Shown here: one piece after another, positions 7,235-57,129 of the stretch | Position numbering within the stretch: position 1 is the first letter of the stretch | Layout: every line of letters begins with the position of its first letter | Virus genome (UHGV): UHGV-0200554 | DNA: 64,000 bases | Strand: one strand, 5' to 3' | From: a virus | Translations under genes and position numbers: made by a program | Notes under the pieces: generated by a model | Database searches by the model: none | The model's input: only the letters and a program-made list of their open reading frames with translations | What the model was told of the DNA's origin: nothing

Positions 7235-7293
7235 TACTAATCCACAACACTTTGCCCCTCTTACTGAGGGGCTAACTGCTATGGAGCTGACCA

Positions 7294-9309
7294 ATGATTA
7301 TTAAAAGTGACCATAAAGAAGCAACCATTCTCGGTAAGAGTGAAGTTACCACAGGGACAATTGCGCTGAATGCTGAGACGTTTGGCCTGATTATCAAAGG
7401 TATTTACAAAGATCCTTTACTTGCTTCCTGCCGTGAGCCTATCTTTAATGCTGTGGATGCTCATGTTGAAGCGGGTCGTAAAGATGTGCCTATCAAGATC
7501 CATACACCAACCGACCTTGAGCCTTACTTCTCTGTACAGGACGAAGGCCTCGGCATGTCTGAAGAGACTGTACGCACAATCTTTATGACATTGGGCGACT
7601 CCACTAAGCGTCAGAGCAACGAATTGGTGGGTGCCAAAGGTATTGGTTCGAAAGCACCTCTGAGCAAGGTGGAAGCCTTTAACGTTATAAGCGTCTATAA
7701 CGGCACAAGAAGCGAATATCTTGTCTTTATGGACAAAGGTATACCGAAAGTCACTAAAACGCGTAGCGAGCCTTCTACGCAGCATAACGGCATCACAATC
7801 AGGTTCCCTGTGAACAAAAAAGATGTGTCTGCGTATCGCCATGCAATAGCTTCATGCCTGAACTATGCTAAGTTTCCGTTTGAGGTGTCGGATCCGATCA
7901 CCACACGGATGCTGGAGCAATTTAAAAGCAACATTGACTACACATACAAAAAAGATGGGTGGACTCTGTACATCTACCACGGCAATACTTGCTCTCTGGA
8001 AAGTCGTGTTGTGATGGGGCACCAGCCTTATCGTTCAGAGTATCTTGAATCTATGATAGATTATCCGCGTCTGGTGGTAGAGATTCCGATTGGTGATTGC
8101 GATATCAACCCTGGCCGTGAATGGACGATTGAAGGTGATGATGATGGTGGGTTCCTTGAACAACTGAAAGCCTTTGTGGACGAAGGTATCAGTAAACGTG
8201 GTGAAGAGATTGAAGTGCTGCTGAATAAAGCCACTTCTGCTATTGAAGCTCGCCGTATCATTAAAGAGTCTGGTGGCTTCTTCTCGCGTCTGGTAGGCTG
8301 GAAGTTTATGACTGCTAAATGGAAAGCCATAATGCAGGGGCATACTGTCCCAGTTATCAGTGAGTTGCCTGTGTTTGTAGGTGGTACTCGGATTGGCGCT
8401 AACTCTCTGAAACGAGATATGTACGGACCTTCTGAGTTTTCAGCAGGTCGTAAGCTGGTACTGAATGACGCAAATGGTAAATTCAACCGGATTAAATGTA
8501 ACTATCTGGCTAATGAGACTAGTCGCAACGTCTACTATGTAGAAGACCCATACCTGTCAGAAGAGTTGGCTAAGTATGTGGACGATCCATTCTACAGTGA
8601 CGTGCTGTTCCTGTTGTCTGAGCTGCCTAAGCCACCAAAAGACCAACGTCAGGCGAGCAGTACGTATCAGCCGGGTTATTTTGTCAAAAAGCTGGATGAA
8701 CACGGTTGGTTCTGCCGCGAACGCATAAGCAAGCAGGATTTTAAAGATATCAAGTATTGCATCCCGTATGATGGGGATATCCAAAGAGGCCGTAGTTGGT
8801 TGGGTGAGAACAATAACATCTACCAACAGGATCCGGTAGTCTTCCGTGAGGCCTTTGGTATCCCACAGGATGAAGATGTTTACATGGTTGCTGAAAGTCG
8901 CTTGACATGGGTGGCAGAAGATTGTAAGATTATCACAGAGGTTGATGCAAAACCTGTTCTGGAACAGGACGCCTGGAACTGGCTCTTGATGAGAGCTGCA
9001 AACACGACAGGTTACACAAAATACAAAATGCAACTGGGTAAACTGGGTGTGAAAATGTGCATTGACCCAGAAGTAAAAGAAAACGAGTATAAGGTTCGTA
9101 TGTGGATGGGATGCTACTCGTGGAAGTACAGAGATCTGGCTGACAGAGCAGATCATCTTGTGAACCTTCATGTGAAGTGTGCTCGCCGCTACATGGATGG
9201 TGTATACCAACGCTACCCGTTGCTGAAACGCATCCATGGGGATCACTGGGATAAACCGGAAGTTATTGAATATATTGAATTAATGAAAGCTAAGAAGGAG
9301 ACTGAATAA
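7294..9309 (+). CDS. GHKL (Bergerat-fold) ATPase domain protein
   Basis: N-box EPIFNAVDAH, G1 box DEGLGM, G2 box GAKGIGSKA near N-terminus; remainder unassigned. Confidence 0.6.
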   Translation: MIIKSDHKEATILGKSEVTTGTIALNAETFGLIIKGIYKDPLLASCREPIFNAVDAHVEAGRKDVPIKIHTPTDLEPYFSVQDEGLGMSEETVRTIFMTLGDSTKRQSNELVGAKGIGSKAPLSKVEAFNVISVYNGTRSEYLVFMDKGIPKVTKTRSEPSTQHNGITIRFPVNKKDVSAYRHAIASCLNYAKFPFEVSDPITTRMLEQFKSNIDYTYKKDGWTLYIYHGNTCSLESRVVMGHQPYRSEYLESMIDYPRLVVEIPIGDCDINPGREWTIEGDDDGGFLEQLKAFVDEGISKRGEEIEVLLNKATSAIEARRIIKESGGFFSRLVGWKFMTAKWKAIMQGHTVPVISELPVFVGGTRIGANSLKRDMYGPSEFSAGRKLVLNDANGKFNRIKCNYLANETSRNVYYVEDPYLSEELAKYVDDPFYSDVLFLLSELPKPPKDQRQASSTYQPGYFVKKLDEHGWFCRERISKQDFKDIKYCIPYDGDIQRGRSWLGENNNIYQQDPVVFREAFGIPQDEDVYMVAESRLTWVAEDCKIITEVDAKPVLEQDAWNWLLMRAANTTGYTKYKMQLGKLGVKMCIDPEVKENEYKVRMWMGCYSWKYRDLADRADHLVNLHVKCARRYMDGVYQRYPLLKRIHGDHWDKPEVIEYIELMKAKKETE

Positions 9310-48312: not shown

Positions 48313-48528
48313 CTAAAAGTCCTCCCTTTCACGAAGTATTTTAGTGAACCCTTCAAGCCAGGTAGTGTCTGTGATCATATCAAGATCCTGTGCAAGTGCA
48401 CGTCTGACGTTCCTTTTATGCACCGCAGTTAGTGTTACCCAAAAGTCCAGAGGCATGTTGGCTAGACAAGAATTGTCGAAAGGGTAATTATGCACCTTAC
48501 CTTCAGAGCAGAGCACACTGAAATCCAT
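48313..48528 (-). CDS. hypothetical protein
   Basis: ORF track. Confidence 0.45.
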   Translation of the reverse strand: MDFSVLCSEGKVHNYPFDNSCLANMPLDFWVTLTAVHKRNVRRALAQDLDMITDTTWLEGFTKILREREDF

Positions 48529-48544
48529 TTGGCATCACCTCCGA

Positions 48545-48835
48545 TCACTTATGATCAGCGTCGTAGTCTTTCCAGGGGAGAAATTCGCAATCAAGGCCGG
48601 GGGCAACAACCTCACCAGTAGTAAGACCTTGCAGGAAGATAGTCTGCCCAGTTTCTGTAACGATGCATTCAAAATTCCTCTGATGGGCATAAAGCACCGT
48701 ATAGATCTCGCCGAGGTACAACCCTTTGATACCGCCTGTTTTTACGCACATGACGCTCATAAGAGGGTATAAACCTTCTTCACAAGTTAGTTTGCTCAGT
48801 TCTCTCATAGTGTATCTCATTGTGTCCTCCATCAT
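48545..48835 (-). CDS. hypothetical protein
   Basis: ORF track. Confidence 0.5.
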   Translation of the reverse strand: MMEDTMRYTMRELSKLTCEEGLYPLMSVMCVKTGGIKGLYLGEIYTVLYAHQRNFECIVTETGQTIFLQGLTTGEVVAPGLDCEFLPWKDYDADHK

Positions 48836-49140
48836 CCAAAAATTGTTTCGAGATAGGCAGCTCTGCGGTTTTTCGTGAAATCCTGCAAATCATTGAGATC
48901 GGCATCAGTCCTGGTACACAAAGACTCCCTGCATGTGTTCAGCCAATGCAGATCTATCATAACCTGACAGAAGTCCCTGGGTAGCATATTATCCATAACA
49001 TCCTTCTTGTCAAGGTTTGGGAAGATTTCATCGATAGTGCTATCATCGGGACTAATGATACTGAATGTTCTGTCAATACCTGTGCAGACAGCTACAAGTG
49101 TAGGGCTGTCACCAGGCAACAATTCGTGATCACGAGACAT
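48832..49140 (-). CDS. hypothetical protein
   Basis: ORF track; overlap coupling. Confidence 0.5.
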   Translation of the reverse strand: MSRDHELLPGDSPTLVAVCTGIDRTFSIISPDDSTIDEIFPNLDKKDVMDNMLPRDFCQVMIDLHWLNTCRESLCTRTDADLNDLQDFTKNRRAAYLETIFG

Positions 49141-49184
49141 GTAAACCTCAGATAAAGAAAAAGGGAGCCAAAGCTCCCTTCAGA

Positions 49185-49490
49185 TTATTCTGCTGAACGC
49201 TTGAAGAGGATATCAGTCTCTTCCATTGCGTCAACTTCGGCTTCCAGTTTCGCGCGACGTTTCTCTGATTCATATCTCTTATCGAATTCAGTAGCCACCA
49301 GTGACTTCAGGAATTTAGGAGAAATCAAGTGATCTTCTTTTTCCACCTTGATAATATCCTTCATTGCTTCCTTCATGTCTTTAATTTTCAACTGGAGATC
49401 AACCAGTTCTTCAACTGTTTTACGCAGACGTTCGCGTTCTGCTGGGTCAGCCGGAAGAGAAGTAAACAGTTCAACTTTAGTACGTGCCAT
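49185..49490 (-). CDS. hypothetical coiled-coil-like protein
   Basis: ORF track; charged heptad-like sequence. Confidence 0.5.
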   Translation of the reverse strand: MARTKVELFTSLPADPAERERLRKTVEELVDLQLKIKDMKEAMKDIIKVEKEDHLISPKFLKSLVATEFDKRYESEKRRAKLEAEVDAMEETDILFKRSAE

Positions 49491-49508
49491 CTTTAGAGGT
49501 CCCCTTTC

Positions 49509-49721
49509 TTAATCTAAAATGTCTACAATTTTGAAGTACTCTGGGCATTCGATTACATTCAGGCAGATGTAACGGCTATCACCATCGTCATCAATCGTAT
49601 AGAAAGCTAACTCACCGTCAACAGCTGGATGGTGGACGACGTAACCATCGTAGATTCCACCTTTAGTGAACCCCCAGTAATCACCGAGGCATTTCACTGC
49701 AAAGCAATCACCGTTTGTCAT
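49509..49721 (-). CDS. hypothetical protein
   Basis: ORF track. Confidence 0.45.
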   Translation of the reverse strand: MTNGDCFAVKCLGDYWGFTKGGIYDGYVVHHPAVDGELAFYTIDDDGDSRYICLNVIECPEYFKIVDILD

Positions 49722-49867
49722 TTCTTCAACTCCTCACGAATCCGGTCACAAACCACTTTCAGCAGATACGACACCCCAGCAAGTATCCCGCCAAGTACAA
49801 GGGATACACCGAAGATCATCAATAGGACATAGATATCTACCATGGAAACGTCCACAAGCCACCCCCC

Positions 49868-50125
49868 CTATCGAATACCTTTCAGGATATCTTCAAGTTT
49901 ATAGCCTTCGTCAATTGCATGGATAACTTCATCAGCTGTGTAGTAGTATTCTTTACACAAGCGGCAGGCTACAAACAGTTCACCACGAAGTTCCAGACGG
50001 CTGATATCAAACTCACTGAAACCCTGTTTACGAAGTTCTATCTTACACCATTCTACGGCAACCTTGCAAACAATAAACAGGATTAAGATTGCCAGAAGAA
50101 TGGCGGTCAAAGTACTGACTACCAC
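49868..50125 (-). CDS. membrane protein
   Basis: ORF track; N-terminal hydrophobic helix. Confidence 0.5.
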   Translation of the reverse strand: MVVSTLTAILLAILILFIVCKVAVEWCKIELRKQGFSEFDISRLELRGELFVACRLCKEYYYTADEVIHAIDEGYKLEDILKGIR

Positions 50126-50214
50126 AGAGTCCCCTTAGATTAGAATGATAAGTGCGATGACTGCTGCCGCTGTAATAGTTATTGTTCCTAAAAACAACTT
50201 CAGCATTTCTTTGT

Positions 50215-50523
50215 TCATGATATAATCTCCAAAATTTCATAACGGTTAGGTTTGAATATGAAGGCTTCTTCTTTTTGGTATTTGCTTTTTATCTTCTTGC
50301 CCCCTTTTTCTTTACGGCAGAAATAACAAATGATAACGTTATCTCTTACCATGTGGAACAGGATATCTTCTTCTGTCAACCCACAGGTAGAAAGGTCCTC
50401 GTAGGAGAGTGCTTTAGCTACAGATTCTTTGGTTGGGGTTTCACCAACAACTTCGTCACCTTCGTGAACCCCGTACTCTGCCAAAGCATCTCCCACACCA
50501 ATCAATCTAACTTTAACCAGCAT
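50215..50523 (-). CDS. hypothetical protein
   Basis: ORF track. Confidence 0.5.
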   Translation of the reverse strand: MLVKVRLIGVGDALAEYGVHEGDEVVGETPTKESVAKALSYEDLSTCGLTEEDILFHMVRDNVIICYFCRKEKGGKKIKSKYQKEEAFIFKPNRYEILEIIS

Positions 50524-50537
50524 GGGAGAGTCTCCTG

Positions 50538-50810
50538 CTATTCAACGATTTCGTAGCAATCACTGCAAACAATCATCGGGTCTGCTTCGAAGCCAGGGAT
50601 ATTTTCAAGAACGACCGCTTGGTTAAGAGTCAGCATAACCAGGAGAATACCAACATCTTCTTCTGCAACACCTAAGCTAAGCAGTTCTTCTTTATTCGGG
50701 TAGTGTGCATCAAGCACAGCACCTTCTTTGATCATACCAGACGCTTCAACCATTCCTTTCATGTCACTAGGCATCATGCAGTCTTCAACTTTAGTCAGGC
50801 GAATTTTCAT
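50538..50810 (-). CDS. small acidic protein, paralog family member
   Basis: MKIRL... start and ...YEIVE end shared with 51279..51551 and 50810..51103. Confidence 0.55.
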   Translation of the reverse strand: MKIRLTKVEDCMMPSDMKGMVEASGMIKEGAVLDAHYPNKEELLSLGVAEEDVGILLVMLTLNQAVVLENIPGFEADPMIVCSDCYEIVE

Positions 50811-51103
50811 TATTCGTCCTCCTCTTCTTCAACAACATCCCAGAAATCACCAGGGATAGCCAGACCTTTATCTTCATCACCGTTTGGGAAAATGAAAACA
50901 ACCCCTTCGAGGATCATCATCAGAGTGACCTGCTGTAATGCATCTTCACCAGGATCAGGATCTCCGTGAGAAGTGATCTCTTTCAACACATCTGCCGGAC
51001 TTGGGACAAATGCATCATGAATTTCACCATCTTTGATACCGAAGATTTTTGCTGTTTCTTCGTCTACACCTTTAAGCACTACTTTAAAATCTGGTTGACG
51101 CAT
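50810..51103 (-). CDS. small acidic protein, paralog family member
   Basis: Similar length and pattern; ends DVVEEEEDE. Confidence 0.5.
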   Translation of the reverse strand: MRQPDFKVVLKGVDEETAKIFGIKDGEIHDAFVPSPADVLKEITSHGDPDPGEDALQQVTLMMILEGVVFIFPNGDEDKGLAIPGDFWDVVEEEEDE

Positions 51104-51278
51104 TGTGAGTACCTTTTGTAAAAGGGCACATCCGCTGTGCCGATGAGTTAGGGAGGTAACTGCAAGTTTATCAGAGAAACTCTTTCAAAACTTTAGCTTG
51201 GGTGATCATAAAGACACCGTAAGCAAGAACTACAGGTGCTGTTACGACAGTTAAGAGATAAGCTACTGCCAACATGCT

Positions 51279-51551
51279 TTACTCCTCAACTACCTCGTAG
51301 TTTTCAGGTAAAACAATCAGGTTTTCACCACTACCCGGGGCATCAAAAGTAGCCATACCTTCCGGCAGGTGCAGTTCAACCAAAGTGAGCAGAGCTTCAC
51401 GTTCAGCTTCGCCCATACCTTCGAAAGTTTCGTCACCTAGGGCATCGCGAGCTACATCTTCCGGTGTAGGAATTTTAGCTTCTACGATCATACCTTCAGT
51501 CAGGCCGTGGATTGGATCAGCGATTTCAGTGTTCAGTAATTTAATTTTCAT
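51279..51551 (-). CDS. small acidic protein, paralog family member
   Basis: MKIKL... start and ...NYEVVEE end. Confidence 0.55.
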   Translation of the reverse strand: MKIKLLNTEIADPIHGLTEGMIVEAKIPTPEDVARDALGDETFEGMGEAEREALLTLVELHLPEGMATFDAPGSGENLIVLPENYEVVEE

Positions 51552-51917
51552 TAGAAGGTCCTCTTTTTGGGTAGAATTAATAGCCGTAGCCTAAGAAGTT
51601 AACAACAGCTATCAGGAAAATCATAACTAACAGACAAGCTATCTCTAAACGCATTACATGTTCTCTTTAGTTGGTAGTTATTTCTCTTGTTTGTAGTGTT
51701 CACGGAGGAGCTGGATTACAAAGTCCAGCCCTCCGATGATACCACAGACAAGGAAAGTATAGATGAGAAACATTAAAATCATGTCGTACATACTACACCA
51801 CCTTGCTGCTAGTGTCAAGTGCTTATTTGGAAAATAGGTGAATTATTTTTTACCTTTCCCGCCTTTGCCTTTGCCACCTTTTTTGCCACATGCCATACAC
51901 AATCTCCAGTTAGTTAA

Positions 51918-52238
51918 TTAAAAGTGGCCTTGCGCTAGTTTAATGAGCGCATCTGCCATTTGACGAACCGCTTTGGCGTGTTCCAAAGGCGAAAGTCCGT
52001 CTTCAGGATCGAAGCGTAATGCTTCCATTACTGCTTTCAGTTCACCATCTTCCGCATGGATTTCACCACGTACCGGAAGTGCCCCAGGACACGATTGGTC
52101 CATACTTTCTTCAACGTAATCAACACCAGCGATAAGACCAAATGCACCGTTGTTGTCGATAACAAGTTCTTGTTTCATCTTGGCACCCTCTTTGTTTCGA
52201 TGTGTGGTAACTATAACAGATTCAAATCGTGTTGTCAA
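51918..52238 (-). CDS. hypothetical protein
   Basis: ORF track; start may be the internal MKQEL. Confidence 0.45.
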   Translation of the reverse strand: MTTRFESVIVTTHRNKEGAKMKQELVIDNNGAFGLIAGVDYVEESMDQSCPGALPVRGEIHAEDGELKAVMEALRFDPEDGLSPLEHAKAVRQMADALIKLAQGHF

Positions 52239-52643
52239 CTACTTTTTAATCTCAATTTTGCCGTATGGAGGCATATCATCAAGATTACTGTTTTTAAGCA
52301 TTGTAGCACAATTTTTATCTGGTGTCCACTGTTTTTTATCATTGTCCCAATAATAAGGAGATCTGCTATCAGGATGTTTAATTATAAACACTTCAGGTGC
52401 TGTTGTCAAGTCAATTTTTTCAAAATCTACGTGGACTTTACCATTAAACCCGCCACGTTGATATCCACGGTCGAAATTTGATCTTGCAAATAAATATCCG
52501 GCTAACCAGCCAGCAGAGACACCATCCCCCGCGATGGCGTAGCCAATTACACGTTTTCTCTTCTGGTGGTCATCCTCAACATCCCAGGCATCTTCCACCA
52601 GAGTAGTTATTTTATACAGATTCACCTCTGTGGGCCTCCTCAT
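52239..52643 (-). CDS. hypothetical protein
   Basis: ORF track. Confidence 0.5.
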   Translation of the reverse strand: MRRPTEVNLYKITTLVEDAWDVEDDHQKRKRVIGYAIAGDGVSAGWLAGYLFARSNFDRGYQRGGFNGKVHVDFEKIDLTTAPEVFIIKHPDSRSPYYWDNDKKQWTPDKNCATMLKNSNLDDMPPYGKIEIKK

Positions 52644-52974
52644 AGTTCAGAATCATGGCATCTACAAACAACATCCGCATAACGTTGAGGTGTTTGTTCT
52701 TGCGGCTATAATACACGTATGCATCCCCGTTGTCAAACGGAAACTGTGTGTCACCATAAACTTTTTCCAGAGCATTTTCCAGCTCTTCCTGGAGCTGATA
52801 GTACGTCCCTGTATCAAGACCTTGATAAGAGGCATACTCAGCCAGGTTCCCACATAAACCGCGATGATCCTGGAACACAGGATCAGTGTCTTTAGCACCT
52901 CCCCATGCCCAGCTCCTGTACTCCATGTAAAACTGGTACATGAAGTCAGAAGGAATTACTGTCTCAATAACCAT
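52612..52974 (-). CDS. hypothetical protein
   Basis: ORF track. Confidence 0.5.
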   Translation of the reverse strand: MVIETVIPSDFMYQFYMEYRSWAWGGAKDTDPVFQDHRGLCGNLAEYASYQGLDTGTYYQLQEELENALEKVYGDTQFPFDNGDAYVYYSRKNKHLNVMRMLFVDAMILNYEEAHRGESV

Positions 52975-52983
52975 AACCCACCT

Positions 52984-53283
52984 CTACTCATCTACATATA
53001 TGAGCAGGATACGAGTATCCGGCACCCCAGTTACTTCCCAGTAGCCACCACCTGGATAAACTTTACCAAGCAGTACGCCGATATGGCGACGGATTTTCTC
53101 AACCATCTCTTCCATACGTTGTGCATCTTTGCGTCGGAACATGCGGAATGTGCCGTTTGACAAACGGTATTGGTATTCCATCATCTTATCGACTAATTCA
53201 GCTACACGGTTTACTACCGGATCGTCATCGAGGCCATCAAGTAAACGAACATGACGCATAACTCTCTCCTTACCAGCCTTCAT
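52984..53283 (-). CDS. hypothetical protein
   Basis: ORF track. Confidence 0.5.
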   Translation of the reverse strand: MKAGKERVMRHVRLLDGLDDDPVVNRVAELVDKMMEYQYRLSNGTFRMFRRKDAQRMEEMVEKIRRHIGVLLGKVYPGGGYWEVTGVPDTRILLIYVDE

Positions 53284-53331
53284 AGCGGATAATTGGTTGT
53301 GGGGGTTCAGGTGGACGTGGTTTATCGTCCT

Positions 53332-53595
53332 TTACAGCTTTTTTGGCGGTGCTGCCTTAGGCATATGAGCTTTAGTATGGATCTGGTCAGCAGTGTAATA
53401 CTGTGCACCCTGCTCTGTTAAAGCTCGGTCTTTCACATAGCAATCAGCAGCCCAAACGGCCTGTTCTTCACTATGCCATTTACGCTGACCATTTAGCCAA
53501 ATATCATGCCACATTGGGATAAAGCCAAGGTGAACTTTCTTCACCTGTGCCCTCCACCATACACCATCAAAGAAGATTTTAAATTCCACTTCCAT
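53332..53595 (-). CDS. hypothetical protein
   Basis: ORF track. Confidence 0.5.
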   Translation of the reverse strand: MEVEFKIFFDGVWWRAQVKKVHLGFIPMWHDIWLNGQRKWHSEEQAVWAADCYVKDRALTEQGAQYYTADQIHTKAHMPKAAPPKKL

Positions 53596-53867
53596 CAGTC
53601 ATCCTCCACCAGCTGTGCACCTGCCGGATAAATACCTGTTTCAACCCAAAGCTCACACTGAGCGTACCCTGGGATACGAGACAGCGAGCAAGGTTTAGAT
53701 GTAGTGTAGAAACGGCGTTCACCGTAACCGTTCTCCTGGAGGATCCAGAAACCTACGTCACCATCTCCAGGTATTTTCATGCCGTTCTCATCGAGCCACT
53801 CTATACTCCAGCGGCGATAAGCTACTGTGTGGAATTTACGTTTCTGCCACCAGTTAAAGAGCCACAT
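53595..53867 (-). CDS. hypothetical protein
   Basis: ORF track. Confidence 0.5.
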   Translation of the reverse strand: MWLFNWWQKRKFHTVAYRRWSIEWLDENGMKIPGDGDVGFWILQENGYGERRFYTTSKPCSLSRIPGYAQCELWVETGIYPAGAQLVEDD

Positions 53868-54048
53868 CTGTAACCTCCTCCAGCTTCACATAACGCCACG
53901 TACGGCTGTAGAGGGCACCAGCGTCATCAAGAGTATCACGGATGTACTCAGGAGTCGTGCCTTCTTTAAAAACGAGAACCCTGACCAGATGCCAGTCTTC
54001 GTCAATAGACATACGACCAGATATGATGAAAGTTGTTTCTGTAGGCAT
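53854..54048 (-). CDS. hypothetical protein
   Basis: ORF track. Confidence 0.45.
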   Translation of the reverse strand: MPTETTFIISGRMSIDEDWHLVRVLVFKEGTTPEYIRDTLDDAGALYSRTWRYVKLEEVTDVAL

Positions 54049-54245
54049 CAGAAGATCTCCTCTTCAAAAATACCTCTCTCAATAGCTTTTATCATAAGCT
54101 CTTTAGTGAAAGCAGAACCTTTCCCCTTACTTATATTTTCAGACCTACACACCATTACAATGTTTGGAGTGTCTGAGTGCACGATGTAATACAAACCATT
54201 CTGTTTGTTGAAGTAATAAGTGTCGTATTTAAATTTGTTAGCCAT
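54048..54245 (-). CDS. hypothetical protein
   Basis: ORF track. Confidence 0.45.
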   Translation of the reverse strand: MANKFKYDTYYFNKQNGLYYIVHSDTPNIVMVCRSENISKGKGSAFTKELMIKAIERGIFEEEIF

Positions 54246-54553
54246 TAGCGTCTACCTCTACCTTTTCTTTTTACTGCTTTCTTAGGTTTCTCAGCTTCAT
54301 CGTCTGCATTAAACATCTGCATGAGATGTGCCTGAGAATTCTTACCAAGGCCGGGTTTCTTCAAAGGATTATCATGTTCTTCAATGTCAATCTCTACTGA
54401 CTCAACCTCTCCGACCTTGTATGGCAATTCTAACAGAAGTTTACCATCCTTGTCAAATGTTTTTATAATAATTGTTTTCCCTTTTTCTTCTACCTCATAA
54501 CGGACACCCGCCGTATAGAAAAGTGTACCGTCATTATGATGGATCCACAGCAT
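54245..54553 (-). CDS. hypothetical protein
   Basis: ORF track; basic C-terminus. Confidence 0.5.
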   Translation of the reverse strand: MLWIHHNDGTLFYTAGVRYEVEEKGKTIIIKTFDKDGKLLLELPYKVGEVESVEIDIEEHDNPLKKPGLGKNSQAHLMQMFNADDEAEKPKKAVKRKGRGRR

Positions 54554-54737
54554 CGCCTTCCTCCTTCAACATCTGGTGGTAGATATCCATAATGGCATCG
54601 TATGCAACATCAAAACCTTGCTGACGCAGCATATCTTCCAGAGGAGACTCCATTGTTGGGTTGTAGTGACGAGCTACGATATCCCGATCCAGTTCGTCAA
54701 AAATGCGTTGGAATACCTCAAATTGCTCTTTTGTCAT
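54534..54737 (-). CDS. hypothetical protein
   Basis: ORF track. Confidence 0.45.
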   Translation of the reverse strand: MTKEQFEVFQRIFDELDRDIVARHYNPTMESPLEDMLRQQGFDVAYDAIMDIYHQMLKEEGDAVDPS

Positions 54738-55123
54738 ATACGAACCCCATCTGCTGGCCCAGAGTATCGCTCAGGTTCCGTTACCGGATCACTGGCTGCT
54801 GGAGCTTCCATTCGCATCTGAGCCTGATCTCCATCCATATAAAGCCAGAACTCTATCTCTTCACCAGAAGAAAGGATAGCATAACCGTGGAAGAAATCTT
54901 TGTTCTTAGTCAACTTTTCGTCAATTGTTGCTTCGACACAAACTTCTTCATAGCCACTTTTTTGTAGCGTGTACGTTGCAACCTGGCAAGCATAAGCCTC
55001 TTGATCTCTGTAATCTTCACCCAGTGAATGAATGATGAAACCCAAGCCTAATCCGCAAAACAGGATAATGCCTAAAGCAAGCATACACTTGGCGAAAGCA
55101 ACACTGAACAGAAAATTTTTCAT
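54734..55123 (-). CDS. membrane-anchored or secreted protein
   Basis: ORF track; N-terminal hydrophobic signal-like segment. Confidence 0.5.
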   Translation of the reverse strand: MKNFLFSVAFAKCMLALGIILFCGLGLGFIIHSLGEDYRDQEAYACQVATYTLQKSGYEEVCVEATIDEKLTKNKDFFHGYAILSSGEEIEFWLYMDGDQAQMRMEAPAASDPVTEPERYSGPADGVRI

Positions 55124-55253
55124 ACAATGAACCTCATAGCTTCAACAAACAGAAGACCTAATGCTGCACCGAACGCAAACCAGCACACCCCATCAATTAA
55201 CTCCTTAATGAACTTTTTCATGTTGCCCTCTCTTACACATCCTTGTGTAACAT

Positions 55254-55709
55254 TTATTCAAAAAGTAGCTCTACGTGGTGTAAAATAAGCATTAATTGCA
55301 TTAACACAATGACAAGAACTACCCAGTTGGCTTTATTATTAACAATTTTACGAATCTTTTCAGAACGTGATTCAGGTAGAGATCTCAGGATACGCTCTAC
55401 TGAACGATTCATATCACGGATAGCCATTTTAAAACTGTCCGATCCTTCATCTTGCTCCGTAACCACGTCGAAAGCACAGTCTTTAGCGTTACCTCCAGAA
55501 CCACGAGTCACAATGAGTCGATACATTGACACAGAATAATGTGTATTCGACTCAGCGTCATAGATGCTGAGAACTTCTTTGGTATGGTCAATTGCTGATG
55601 AAAGTTTAATCGCACCAGCTGTCGTCTCAATTTTACCAGCCTCAAGGAGCATTAACCAATGCTTTTTATCCAGATTCTCAAGACTAGATCTGACGTACTT
55701 CACAAACAT
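55254..55709 (-). CDS. hypothetical protein
   Basis: ORF track. Confidence 0.5.
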   Translation of the reverse strand: MFVKYVRSSLENLDKKHWLMLLEAGKIETTAGAIKLSSAIDHTKEVLSIYDAESNTHYSVSMYRLIVTRGSGGNAKDCAFDVVTEQDEGSDSFKMAIRDMNRSVERILRSLPESRSEKIRKIVNNKANWVVLVIVLMQLMLILHHVELLFE

Positions 55710-55922
55710 TTAATCCTCCTTGCCGAAAGTTAAAAAGAAGTTAAAATCATCAATCCAGTCCCAATTAGAGCGGATCATAGGCCACGATTTATCACCATGC
55801 TCAACATTGTGGGCGCGATAGTCCATCTCCCACACATCAATTAGCTGGTGCATATACTCTTTAGCCTGCTCAAGAGACATGTTGTCAGGATCAATTTTTG
55901 TAATGTCAATCATCTTCATCAT
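55710..55922 (-). CDS. hypothetical protein
   Basis: ORF track. Confidence 0.45.
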   Translation of the reverse strand: MMKMIDITKIDPDNMSLEQAKEYMHQLIDVWEMDYRAHNVEHGDKSWPMIRSNWDWIDDFNFFLTFGKED

Positions 55923-56153
55923 CCTCTTTTAGTTTGTGATAAAGGATAATTGCACCCGCTAAGATAACAAAAAACAGGCACACCCCAGTCAACATCTCAA
56001 CCAACATTGCTTGGCCCATGATCAACCTCTTCAATTAGCTCAACAACTTCATGTAGCAAGTTTTGCAACAAAATTTGATCAGCCAATGTTTTAGCATTGT
56101 TTCTGTGGTCTTTTATGATGTGGAGCACTTGCCACAACAATTGGGCATGAATA

Positions 56154-56372
56154 TCATCTTCCATCACCACCTCCTCTCAGCTTACGCATATTCTTAACCC
56201 AATCGATTACACCGATCAGCAAGCCCAGGAACAGGAAAGGCCACAATCCTGCCAACCCAAGGATATTATGAACATCATCACCATCAATCCGACGTTTAGT
56301 CTTCATACACAGGATTGCCAGAACAATCATCAACAATCCTGCTACACCGAAATATAGTTCAACAATGCCCAT
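56154..56372 (-). CDS. small membrane protein
   Basis: ORF track; two hydrophobic helices. Confidence 0.5.
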   Translation of the reverse strand: MGIVELYFGVAGLLMIVLAILCMKTKRRIDGDDVHNILGLAGLWPFLFLGLLIGVIDWVKNMRKLRGGGDGR

Positions 56373-56383
56373 TGTGTCAACTC

Positions 56384-56899
56384 CTATTTAAATTCTGCCA
56401 TACTGCGGATCATCCGATCACGAGCTTTTCTGTGATGAGTACGCATACATTCTTCAAACACTCCAGAGATAAATCTTGAAATGTAATCTCTTTCAGCTTT
56501 AGTTAGGAGTTCTTCCTCTTCTATTTCGACAGTTTTGTAAGCATATAGACCACATTCGTTGTAGCCTTCATAATAATTCACAGCAATTTTAACAGGAAGA
56601 TCATGACCTTCAAGGGTGAACGGTGTTAACCGACGCTCTGGGTGGCCTGTTTCCTCACCTTCAACAAAATAAAGCGTATTATCATCGAACGCTTTGTCCA
56701 TGCAAGCCACAAAAGCAGCTACTGCCTCAGAAACACCAGCGATAAAGTAAGCATATTTAGCTTTAGCCATCATGATTTGATGACGTTTTACATCTGCTTC
56801 AGTGTGCTTTCCTGAAGCATAGTAATAATATGTGTGGATCTTATCCGGCGATACGTAAAAGTCTTCCCAAGTGTACAGTAGCTTGCTCATAGTGGTCAC
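56384..56899 (-). CDS. hypothetical protein
   Basis: ORF track. Confidence 0.5.
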   Translation of the reverse strand: MTTMSKLLYTWEDFYVSPDKIHTYYYYASGKHTEADVKRHQIMMAKAKYAYFIAGVSEAVAAFVACMDKAFDDNTLYFVEGEETGHPERRLTPFTLEGHDLPVKIAVNYYEGYNECGLYAYKTVEIEEEELLTKAERDYISRFISGVFEECMRTHHRKARDRMIRSMAEFK

Positions 56900-57129
56900 T
56901 CCTCAACTATTTCGAACCCTAAACCGCCATGCTCTGGGAGCGGCAGAAGGGACATGTAGTAGGTATATCCGGGGGATATTCTTCCCTCTTTTGCACCTGC
57001 CTCTAATAAATCAACACCACGAATTATAACAATTGTCGGATCGGTTGTCAAGCGTTTACAGGGAACAATTTTGCCAACACAATCACAGAGGGATGGGTAA
57101 CCGTGGTCGGTAAGGAATTTGACTTTCAT
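56896..57129 (-). CDS. small protein, possible distant member of acidic paralog family
   Basis: Starts MKVKF and ends FEIVEE like 50538/51279 products. Confidence 0.45.
   Translation of the reverse strand: MKVKFLTDHGYPSLCDCVGKIVPCKRLTTDPTIVIIRGVDLLEAGAKEGRISPGYTYYMSLLPLPEHGGLGFEIVEE

Follow-up and report, generated by a model that had tools for sequence, protein, structure and literature searches.

The window analysed here, the whole 64,000-nucleotide stretch of UHGV virus genome UHGV-0200554, carries on its minus strand (50215-51551) four tandem genes, here called A to D, which by sequence comparison belong to one paralogous family. D (51279-51551, minus strand) encodes 90 aa with pI 4.12 and net charge −16, and matches the phrog_11868 HMM end to end (5e-24, residues 1-90 over 1-89 of 89). 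C (50810-51103, minus strand; 97 aa, pI 4.05) ends in an acidic EEEEDE tail and is assigned to phrog_12359 (8.7e-8), B (50538-50810, minus strand; 90 aa, pI 4.23) to phrog_12155 (9.1e-14) and A (50215-50523, minus strand; 102 aa, pI 5.42) to phrog_12794 (2e-10). The stop of C overlaps the start of B as TAATG, and an AGGAG Shine-Dalgarno sequence lies upstream of A. Junctions among the Vequintavirus genes nom_139/140/141/142 abut or overlap.

An initial annotation had described three adjacent minus-strand genes for acidic proteins of about 90 aa, and the pI values of B, C and D (4.23, 4.05 and 4.12) bear out the acidity. Net charge lies between −11 and −18 for these three and is −3 for A; the median net charge is −15 for D, −16 for C and −14 for B (about 90 aa) and −7 for A. 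Around residues 70-86, A has an 11-aa Lys-rich insertion, KEKGGKKIKSKYQKEE, where close relatives have a short DGAPE-type loop, and this insertion raises its pI to 5.4. Acidity is frequent in the surrounding block of small genes (pI <4.5 in 8 of 33), within which C ranks first, D second and B fourth.

The coordinates given for the three genes were correct, but they are not strictly adjacent, since a micro-ORF (51171-51275, minus strand) separates D from C. It encodes 34 aa with a single transmembrane segment, is not a member of the family, and has GAGGAG 7 nt upstream of its ATG. The same ORF is also called as a gene in relatives and is part of the conserved cassette, with a dN/dS of 0.048 at a dS of 0.92 (11 genomes). 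We therefore rejected the view of the 175-bp gap between C and D as non-coding. Two other minus-strand micro-ORFs lie at 51577-51654 (25 aa) and 51678-51791 (37 aa); like the 34-aa one, each encodes a single hydrophobic helix, and the three are interleaved with the family. The C-terminus of the 25-aa product, ...NFLGYGY, resembles the ...NVLGYGY of Vequintavirus nom_134/bas54_0154, so small membrane peptides appear to accompany D in both lineages.

A consensus scan returned 48 sigma-70-like sites against 21.1 ± 4.9 expected, with the minus strand predominating. One promoter candidate, TTGACA-17-TAGTAT (51790-51818, minus strand), is upstream of the micro-ORFs and D, and a stronger candidate is found farther upstream (52238-52210, minus strand). 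An intrinsic-terminator-like hairpin (49160-49181, minus strand; 9-bp stem, 5 GC pairs, T run) comes just after the gene at 49185-49490 and would close the putative transcription unit. The rV5 record has sigma-70 promoters P144 and P150 annotated at equivalent positions and, after ORF158, a rho-independent terminator that matches the hairpin (49181-49160) in position. Early, host-polymerase-driven expression of the cassette is what we would infer from sequence signals of this kind.

Genomic setting

On sequence criteria the window represents an uncultured sister lineage of Vequintavirus, the rV5-like myoviruses. No DNA-level match to the region turned up when 50,697 phage records were searched by megablast, and the DNA polymerase is ~74% identical to that of the E. 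coli Vequintavirus phages (rV5-like) and at most 56% identical to those of other Vequintavirinae genera. The plus-strand half of the window encodes rIIA/rIIB, a Dda-like helicase, a primase-helicase and the family A DNA polymerase, and its minus-strand end encodes NrdD, PhoH and a ClpP-like protease. GC content is ~43-44%, and no tRNAs were found in the window. Around the family, ~33 small minus-strand genes make up a 10-kb block (48.3-58.7 kb). A 139,569-bp contig labelled 'MAG TPA Caudoviricetes sp.' encodes exact copies (100% identity) of two window proteins, one of them B (copy P0023).

The most conserved protein of the block is the 101-aa product of 49185-49490 (minus strand), which shares 76% identity with its Vequintavirus counterpart and 43-55% with those of other Vequintavirinae-like genera; it is named in some records as 'transcriptional regulator', and its Pfam match is not significant. 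Next to it the window has 18 bp (49490-49509) where five relatives (L006, L009-L012; ~7270-7610) hold a gene for a 111-aa TM2-domain/zinc-ribbon protein, placed between a 70-aa gene and the conserved 101-aa gene. The window lineage also has no ribosome hibernation factor gene, which Vequintavirus carries upstream of its D orthologue. Over 48313-56372 (minus strand), synonymous divergence ranges from 0.08 to 1.4 between neighbouring genes, measured in the same 10-11 genomes as the dN/dS values below; such unevenness suggests mosaic recombination inside this part of the block.

Family membership

Pairwise identity among the paralogs is just 25-32%, and pairwise blastp is weak yet non-random (C-D 2.5e-5, B-D 0.003, A-D 0.76). 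Profiles built from the orthologue groups align over their full length in hhalign, with probabilities of 97.6% for C-B (3e-12), 93.4% for D-C (2.6e-7), 92% for D-A (6.7e-7) and 86% for B-A, with unrelated small-protein groups, the negative controls, scoring at most 1.3%. Of the window's 897 stop-to-stop ORFs, the group HMMs cross-detected A, B, C and D only, with cross-hits down to 2.4e-7 and the A-group HMM finding D at 5.5e-7. B, C and D all touch phrog_12359. The earlier claim of a tandem paralogous family of small acidic proteins thus holds by hhalign and HMM cross-detection once its membership is corrected, and the similarity, full-length at 86-97.6%, reaches well past the terminal residues on which that claim had been based.

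The correction concerns the fourth gene. The ORF at 56896-57129 had been offered as a possible fourth member; its hhalign probability is at most 1.3%, all family HMMs miss it, and it matches phrog_5009 only. What it has in common with A to D is confined to the terminal strands of a similar predicted fold. We dropped it, and the true fourth member is A (50215-50523), next to B. The terminal motifs that had been quoted, MKI(K/R)L and (Y/F)E(I/V)VE(E), are present in B and D and not in C, which starts MRQPDFKVVLKG and ends FWDVVEEEEDE; in the looser form MK(I/V)(K/R)L and (Y/F)E(I/V)(V/L)E they correspond to the outer strands, first and last, of the predicted barrel. Such a terminal signature can recur without detectable homology, which explains the grouping of 56896-57129 with the family. 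The family alignment has a single fully conserved Gly and a single Tyr that is almost so, and no catalytic motif is conserved. Sequence profile searches of Pfam, NCBIfam, PADLOC and the PDB gave no match above threshold for the family.

Orthologues and distribution

All four genes are present in the window and in 10 of 10 close relatives (L002-L006, L008-L012). Vequintavirus has five members, nom_135/139/140/141/142, which are bas54_0153/0149/0148/0147/0146 in phage Bas54. The orthologues of D are nom_135, bas54_0153 (54% identity) and rV5 ORF146; those of C are nom_139, bas54_0149 (34%) and rV5 ORF150; those of B are nom_140, bas54_0148 (37%) and rV5 ORF151; and those of A are nom_142 and bas54_0146 (31%), the A orthologue being truncated in the rV5 reference record. 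The fifth Vequintavirus paralog (phrog_12457) is without counterpart in the window. The best window matches of the Bas54 genes fit one-to-one orthology; the genes keep their order, and the members are retained together in both lineages. Since one-to-one orthologues occur in both, the duplications are older than the split between the window lineage and Vequintavirus. At 31-54% identity against ~74% for the DNA polymerase, the family diverges faster than the polymerase.

Searching 1.84 billion cluster representatives exhaustively with a HMMER profile gave 14 at E ≤1e-3, all of 76-137 aa and all from phage contigs of this group, with no bacterial or other-phage relatives among them. Word-indexed searches gave 87 proteins, and most of those on large contigs were on contigs of ~120-145 kb. 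B is represented by 43 clusters at 90% identity. In isolates, tblastn with D and with a divergent member (P0093) hit Vequintavirus-group records only, ~119 of them, mostly Escherichia phages; tblastn of C against phages hit nothing, and its orthologues were reached through profiles only. In Seunavirus, Certrevirus and a Klebsiella relative, no family member was found in the 6 kb on either side of the conserved 101-aa gene.

Selection

We computed gene-wide dN/dS by the Nei-Gojobori method over 10-11 closely related genomes. The values are 0.063 for A, 0.177 for B, 0.180 for C and 0.143 for D, all inside the range of the neighbouring genes (0.05-0.35). The paralogs had been called diversifying. 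With gene-wide dN/dS of 0.063-0.180 lying within the neighbours' range, and with one-to-one orthologues in Vequintavirus, that description is not supported, and gene-wide selection on A to D, as estimated from these alignments, is purifying. Copy number is also constant, at four in 10/10 relatives and five in Vequintavirus, with no lineage-specific expansion. Sites of D that vary among close relatives are concentrated in the helical insert described below; the barrel strands are almost invariant.

Predicted fold

An AlphaFold2 model of D, built on a 22-sequence family alignment, has a pLDDT of 84.9. It predicts an SH3-like five-stranded barrel with a three-helix insert of ~35 residues at the n-Src loop position: strands run over residues 2-5, 22-26, 67-70, 77-80 and 85-89, and the three helices fall within 30-61. 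The modelled barrel has the SH3 strand order and superposes on known SH3-like domains. In this model 'MKIKL' makes up the first strand of the barrel and 'YEIVE' the last. Foldseek against BFVD found one further family member (phage ECP32, 2.1e-3); the remaining small-protein matches were insignificant.

Compared with SH3, KOW, PsaE/NdhS and the retroviral integrase C-terminal domain, the family differs in that the helical insert replaces the n-Src loop. It also differs in being free-standing, acidic and phage-encoded, and it has no canonical SH3 or KOW sequence motif. The SH3 motifs ALYDY, WW and PxNY are absent from the family alignment, and no Pfam family, KOW (PF00467) included, is matched at E ≤1. 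Because those three motifs are not visible, the binding mode of SH3 domains is not transferable to the family.

The phrog_5009 protein at 56896-57129 (bas54_0158/0159) appears to be a second small-barrel family in the block, also predicted SH3-like. Many of the SH3 structures matched by D are also matched by its model (pLDDT 94.8), though with lower Z scores (maximum 4.1), and the model has two short helices in place of a long helical insert. It is less acidic than A to D and has no sequence homology to them detectable by hhalign or HMMs.

Transposon data and neighbouring genes

Essentiality in Bas54 (Escherichia phage MaxBurger, MZ501093) has been mapped by transposon sequencing in a preprint (10.1101/2025.11.20.689424). 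On K-12, bas54_0146-0149 are 'Non-essential' and bas54_0153 is 'Intermediate' (10.1101/2025.11.20.689424). In the clinical strain CFE311, none of the five family orthologues shows a significant fitness change, the log2FC values being 0.32, −0.04, 0.06 and 0.40 for bas54_0146-0149 and −2.78 (p 0.30) for bas54_0153 (10.1101/2025.11.20.689424). The clinical data cover one host, CFE311: a console line in the sheet titled CFE303 refers to the CFE311 data file, and the rows compared (e.g. bas54_0060-0079, 0146-0153) are the same in this sheet and the second table.

Nearby genes outside the family, bas54_0140, 0150, 0151 and 0152, are strongly depleted in the same CFE311 screen, and bas54_0140 is reported to be necessary for withstanding DS-28, a defence system of E. 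coli CFE311 (10.1101/2025.11.20.689424). The window gene at 48832-49140 (minus strand) is weakly similar to bas54_0140 (31% over 39 aa, 1.4e-5) and matches phrog_12072 at E 0.003; on this similarity its product is a possible anti-defence homologue. bas54_0150-0152 (CFE311 log2FC −6.2 to −7.2) are located between the D and C orthologues of the Bas54 record (L013, 11299-12294); the corresponding window interval, 51103-51279, holds no equivalent of them. Of the three, bas54_0152 shows a weak relationship to phrog_5009, and bas54_0150 resembles window gene 52239-52643.

Function

We give about an even chance to the reading that A to D are a conserved cassette of old paralogs encoding non-enzymatic SH3-like binding modules, dispensable accessory factors made early. 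Each gene encodes a small (90-102 aa) soluble protein, three of the four strongly acidic, and these would be produced early in infection and bind without catalysing. Each paralog may keep a partner of its own, a host or a phage protein, held via the RT loop or the helical insert. The proteins would then be conditionally useful accessory factors of the host-takeover type, neither core replication nor virion components. Accessory status is drawn from the non-essential and 'Intermediate' calls on K-12 together with the truncated A orthologue of rV5; we count against it that the orthologues have no significant fitness effect in CFE311, the sole clinical host covered. A role as virion component was considered and set aside; the 'gp133' virion protein of the rV5 paper corresponds to the homologue of window gene 55254-55709, outside the family.

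The host-interaction or anti-defence role that the initial annotation had raised is plausible for the family, and the Bas54 transposon screen is the one experiment that bears on it. We consider it unlikely that the paralogs are inhibitors devoted to anti-defence, possibly as DNA mimics, with each acidic protein blocking a different host immune system, e.g. restriction or another DNA-binding defence protein. T7 Ocr, ArdA and T4 Arn are small, strongly acidic, early DNA-mimic anti-restriction proteins that are dispensable in permissive hosts. The strong negative charge of D, C and B (medians −15, −16 and −14 over about 90 aa) and the dispensability of the orthologues on K-12 favour such a role, but A is far less acidic (median −7), acidity is common in the block (8/33 genes with pI <4.5), and no sequence or fold similarity of the family to those three proteins was found. 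The Bas54 block does also hold genes with experimental support as anti-defence or conditionally essential (bas54_0140, 0150-0152); however, the CFE311 screen, which detected other anti-defence genes, shows no significant depletion of the family orthologues, dN/dS of 0.06-0.18 carries no gene-wide arms-race signal, and no similarity to known anti-defence families was found in Pfam, NCBIfam, PADLOC or the PDB. A precedent is Nip of Bacillus phage Phi3T, which has predicted SH3-like domains, binds a host defence protein and counters SpbK (PMC11984713). It is a precedent for function only: at 279 aa, Nip combines an HU-like dimerisation domain with two SH3-like ones (PMC11984713). It comes from an unrelated phage and has no sequence relationship to the family.

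Conserved gene order, joint retention in both lineages and the tight or overlapping junctions (TAATG between C and B; nom_139/140/141/142), typical of stoichiometrically co-produced subunits, would also fit subunits of one hetero-oligomeric complex, a machine or scaffold in which the barrels pair edge-to-edge as in Sm/Hfq-type assemblies. The small-barrel fold often oligomerises, which counts for this; we still judge it distinctly improbable. A broader proposal, which we hold to be rather improbable, takes one of two forms: a multi-target host-manipulation module in which each paralog, through its variable helical insert or RT loop, neutralises a different host factor or defence protein, or a hetero-oligomeric small-barrel scaffold made from translationally coupled paralogs. 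If either were true, it would define a new phage effector class limited to rV5-like phages and masked in single-gene knockouts. Alternatively, A to D could be KOW-like regulators that tune host or phage gene expression by binding to the ribosome, to RNA polymerase or to RNA. We find this very improbable, as there is no Pfam KOW match at E ≤1, a net charge of −11 to −18 speaks against direct nucleic-acid binding, the window lineage keeps the family yet has no hibernation-factor gene, and the 'sigma 54 modulation factor' label that GenBank gives D orthologues is without Pfam support. Were the resemblance due to chance or composition, and the ORFs no real gene family, identities of just 25-32% and poor blastp E-values such as the A-D value of 0.76 would be unsurprising, but this is contradicted by the profile comparisons and HMM cross-detection, by the cross-hits between PHROGs, by the conserved synteny and by the purifying selection, and its probability is negligible.

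The binding-module cassette that we favour reveals no new mechanism, and its value is modest unless a partner or a phenotype emerges. Old, conserved and individually dispensable genes of this kind allow tidier annotation and give a defined target for array deletion and interaction screens. rV5-like (Vequintavirinae) phages have a broad host range and are candidates for therapy and biocontrol, and their early genes are mostly unannotated.

Annotation of related records

As new members, A to D extend Vequintavirus families that were already catalogued but uncharacterised. PHROGs 11868/12359/12155/12794 (with 12457 for the fifth paralog) contain their direct orthologues, alike in length, gene order and sequence family, and rV5 ORF146/150/151/152/153 correspond to bas54_0153/0149/0148/0147/0146. 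In PHROGs these are separate families of unknown function; here the five are merged into one paralogous family defined by a common predicted fold. The window lineage differs from Vequintavirus in having four members against five and in lacking the three unrelated genes that Vequintavirus has between D and C.

Two inherited labels were rejected. In GenBank the family genes are labelled hypothetical or, for D orthologues in several records, 'sigma 54 modulation factor', although neither nom_135 nor D of the window has a Pfam match; the corresponding family, PF02482 (ribosome hibernation factor), is matched instead by nom_133 (1.3e-12), two genes upstream of nom_135, and the propagated mis-annotation can be corrected accordingly. 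An nr protein identical to A (P0068) is labelled Obg C-terminal (DUF1967/TIGR03595). In Pfam, A reaches 13.7 bits where the cut-off is 27, and in NCBIfam 15.1 where it is 37.65, with just ~20 residues matched.

About 18 'Campylobacter phage' records of the MG0656xx series (C2, C5, C7, C9, A112b and others) carry family orthologues. Their identity is the same as in E. coli Vequintavirus and their genome sizes are similar, and the Campylobacter host label of these records looks doubtful.
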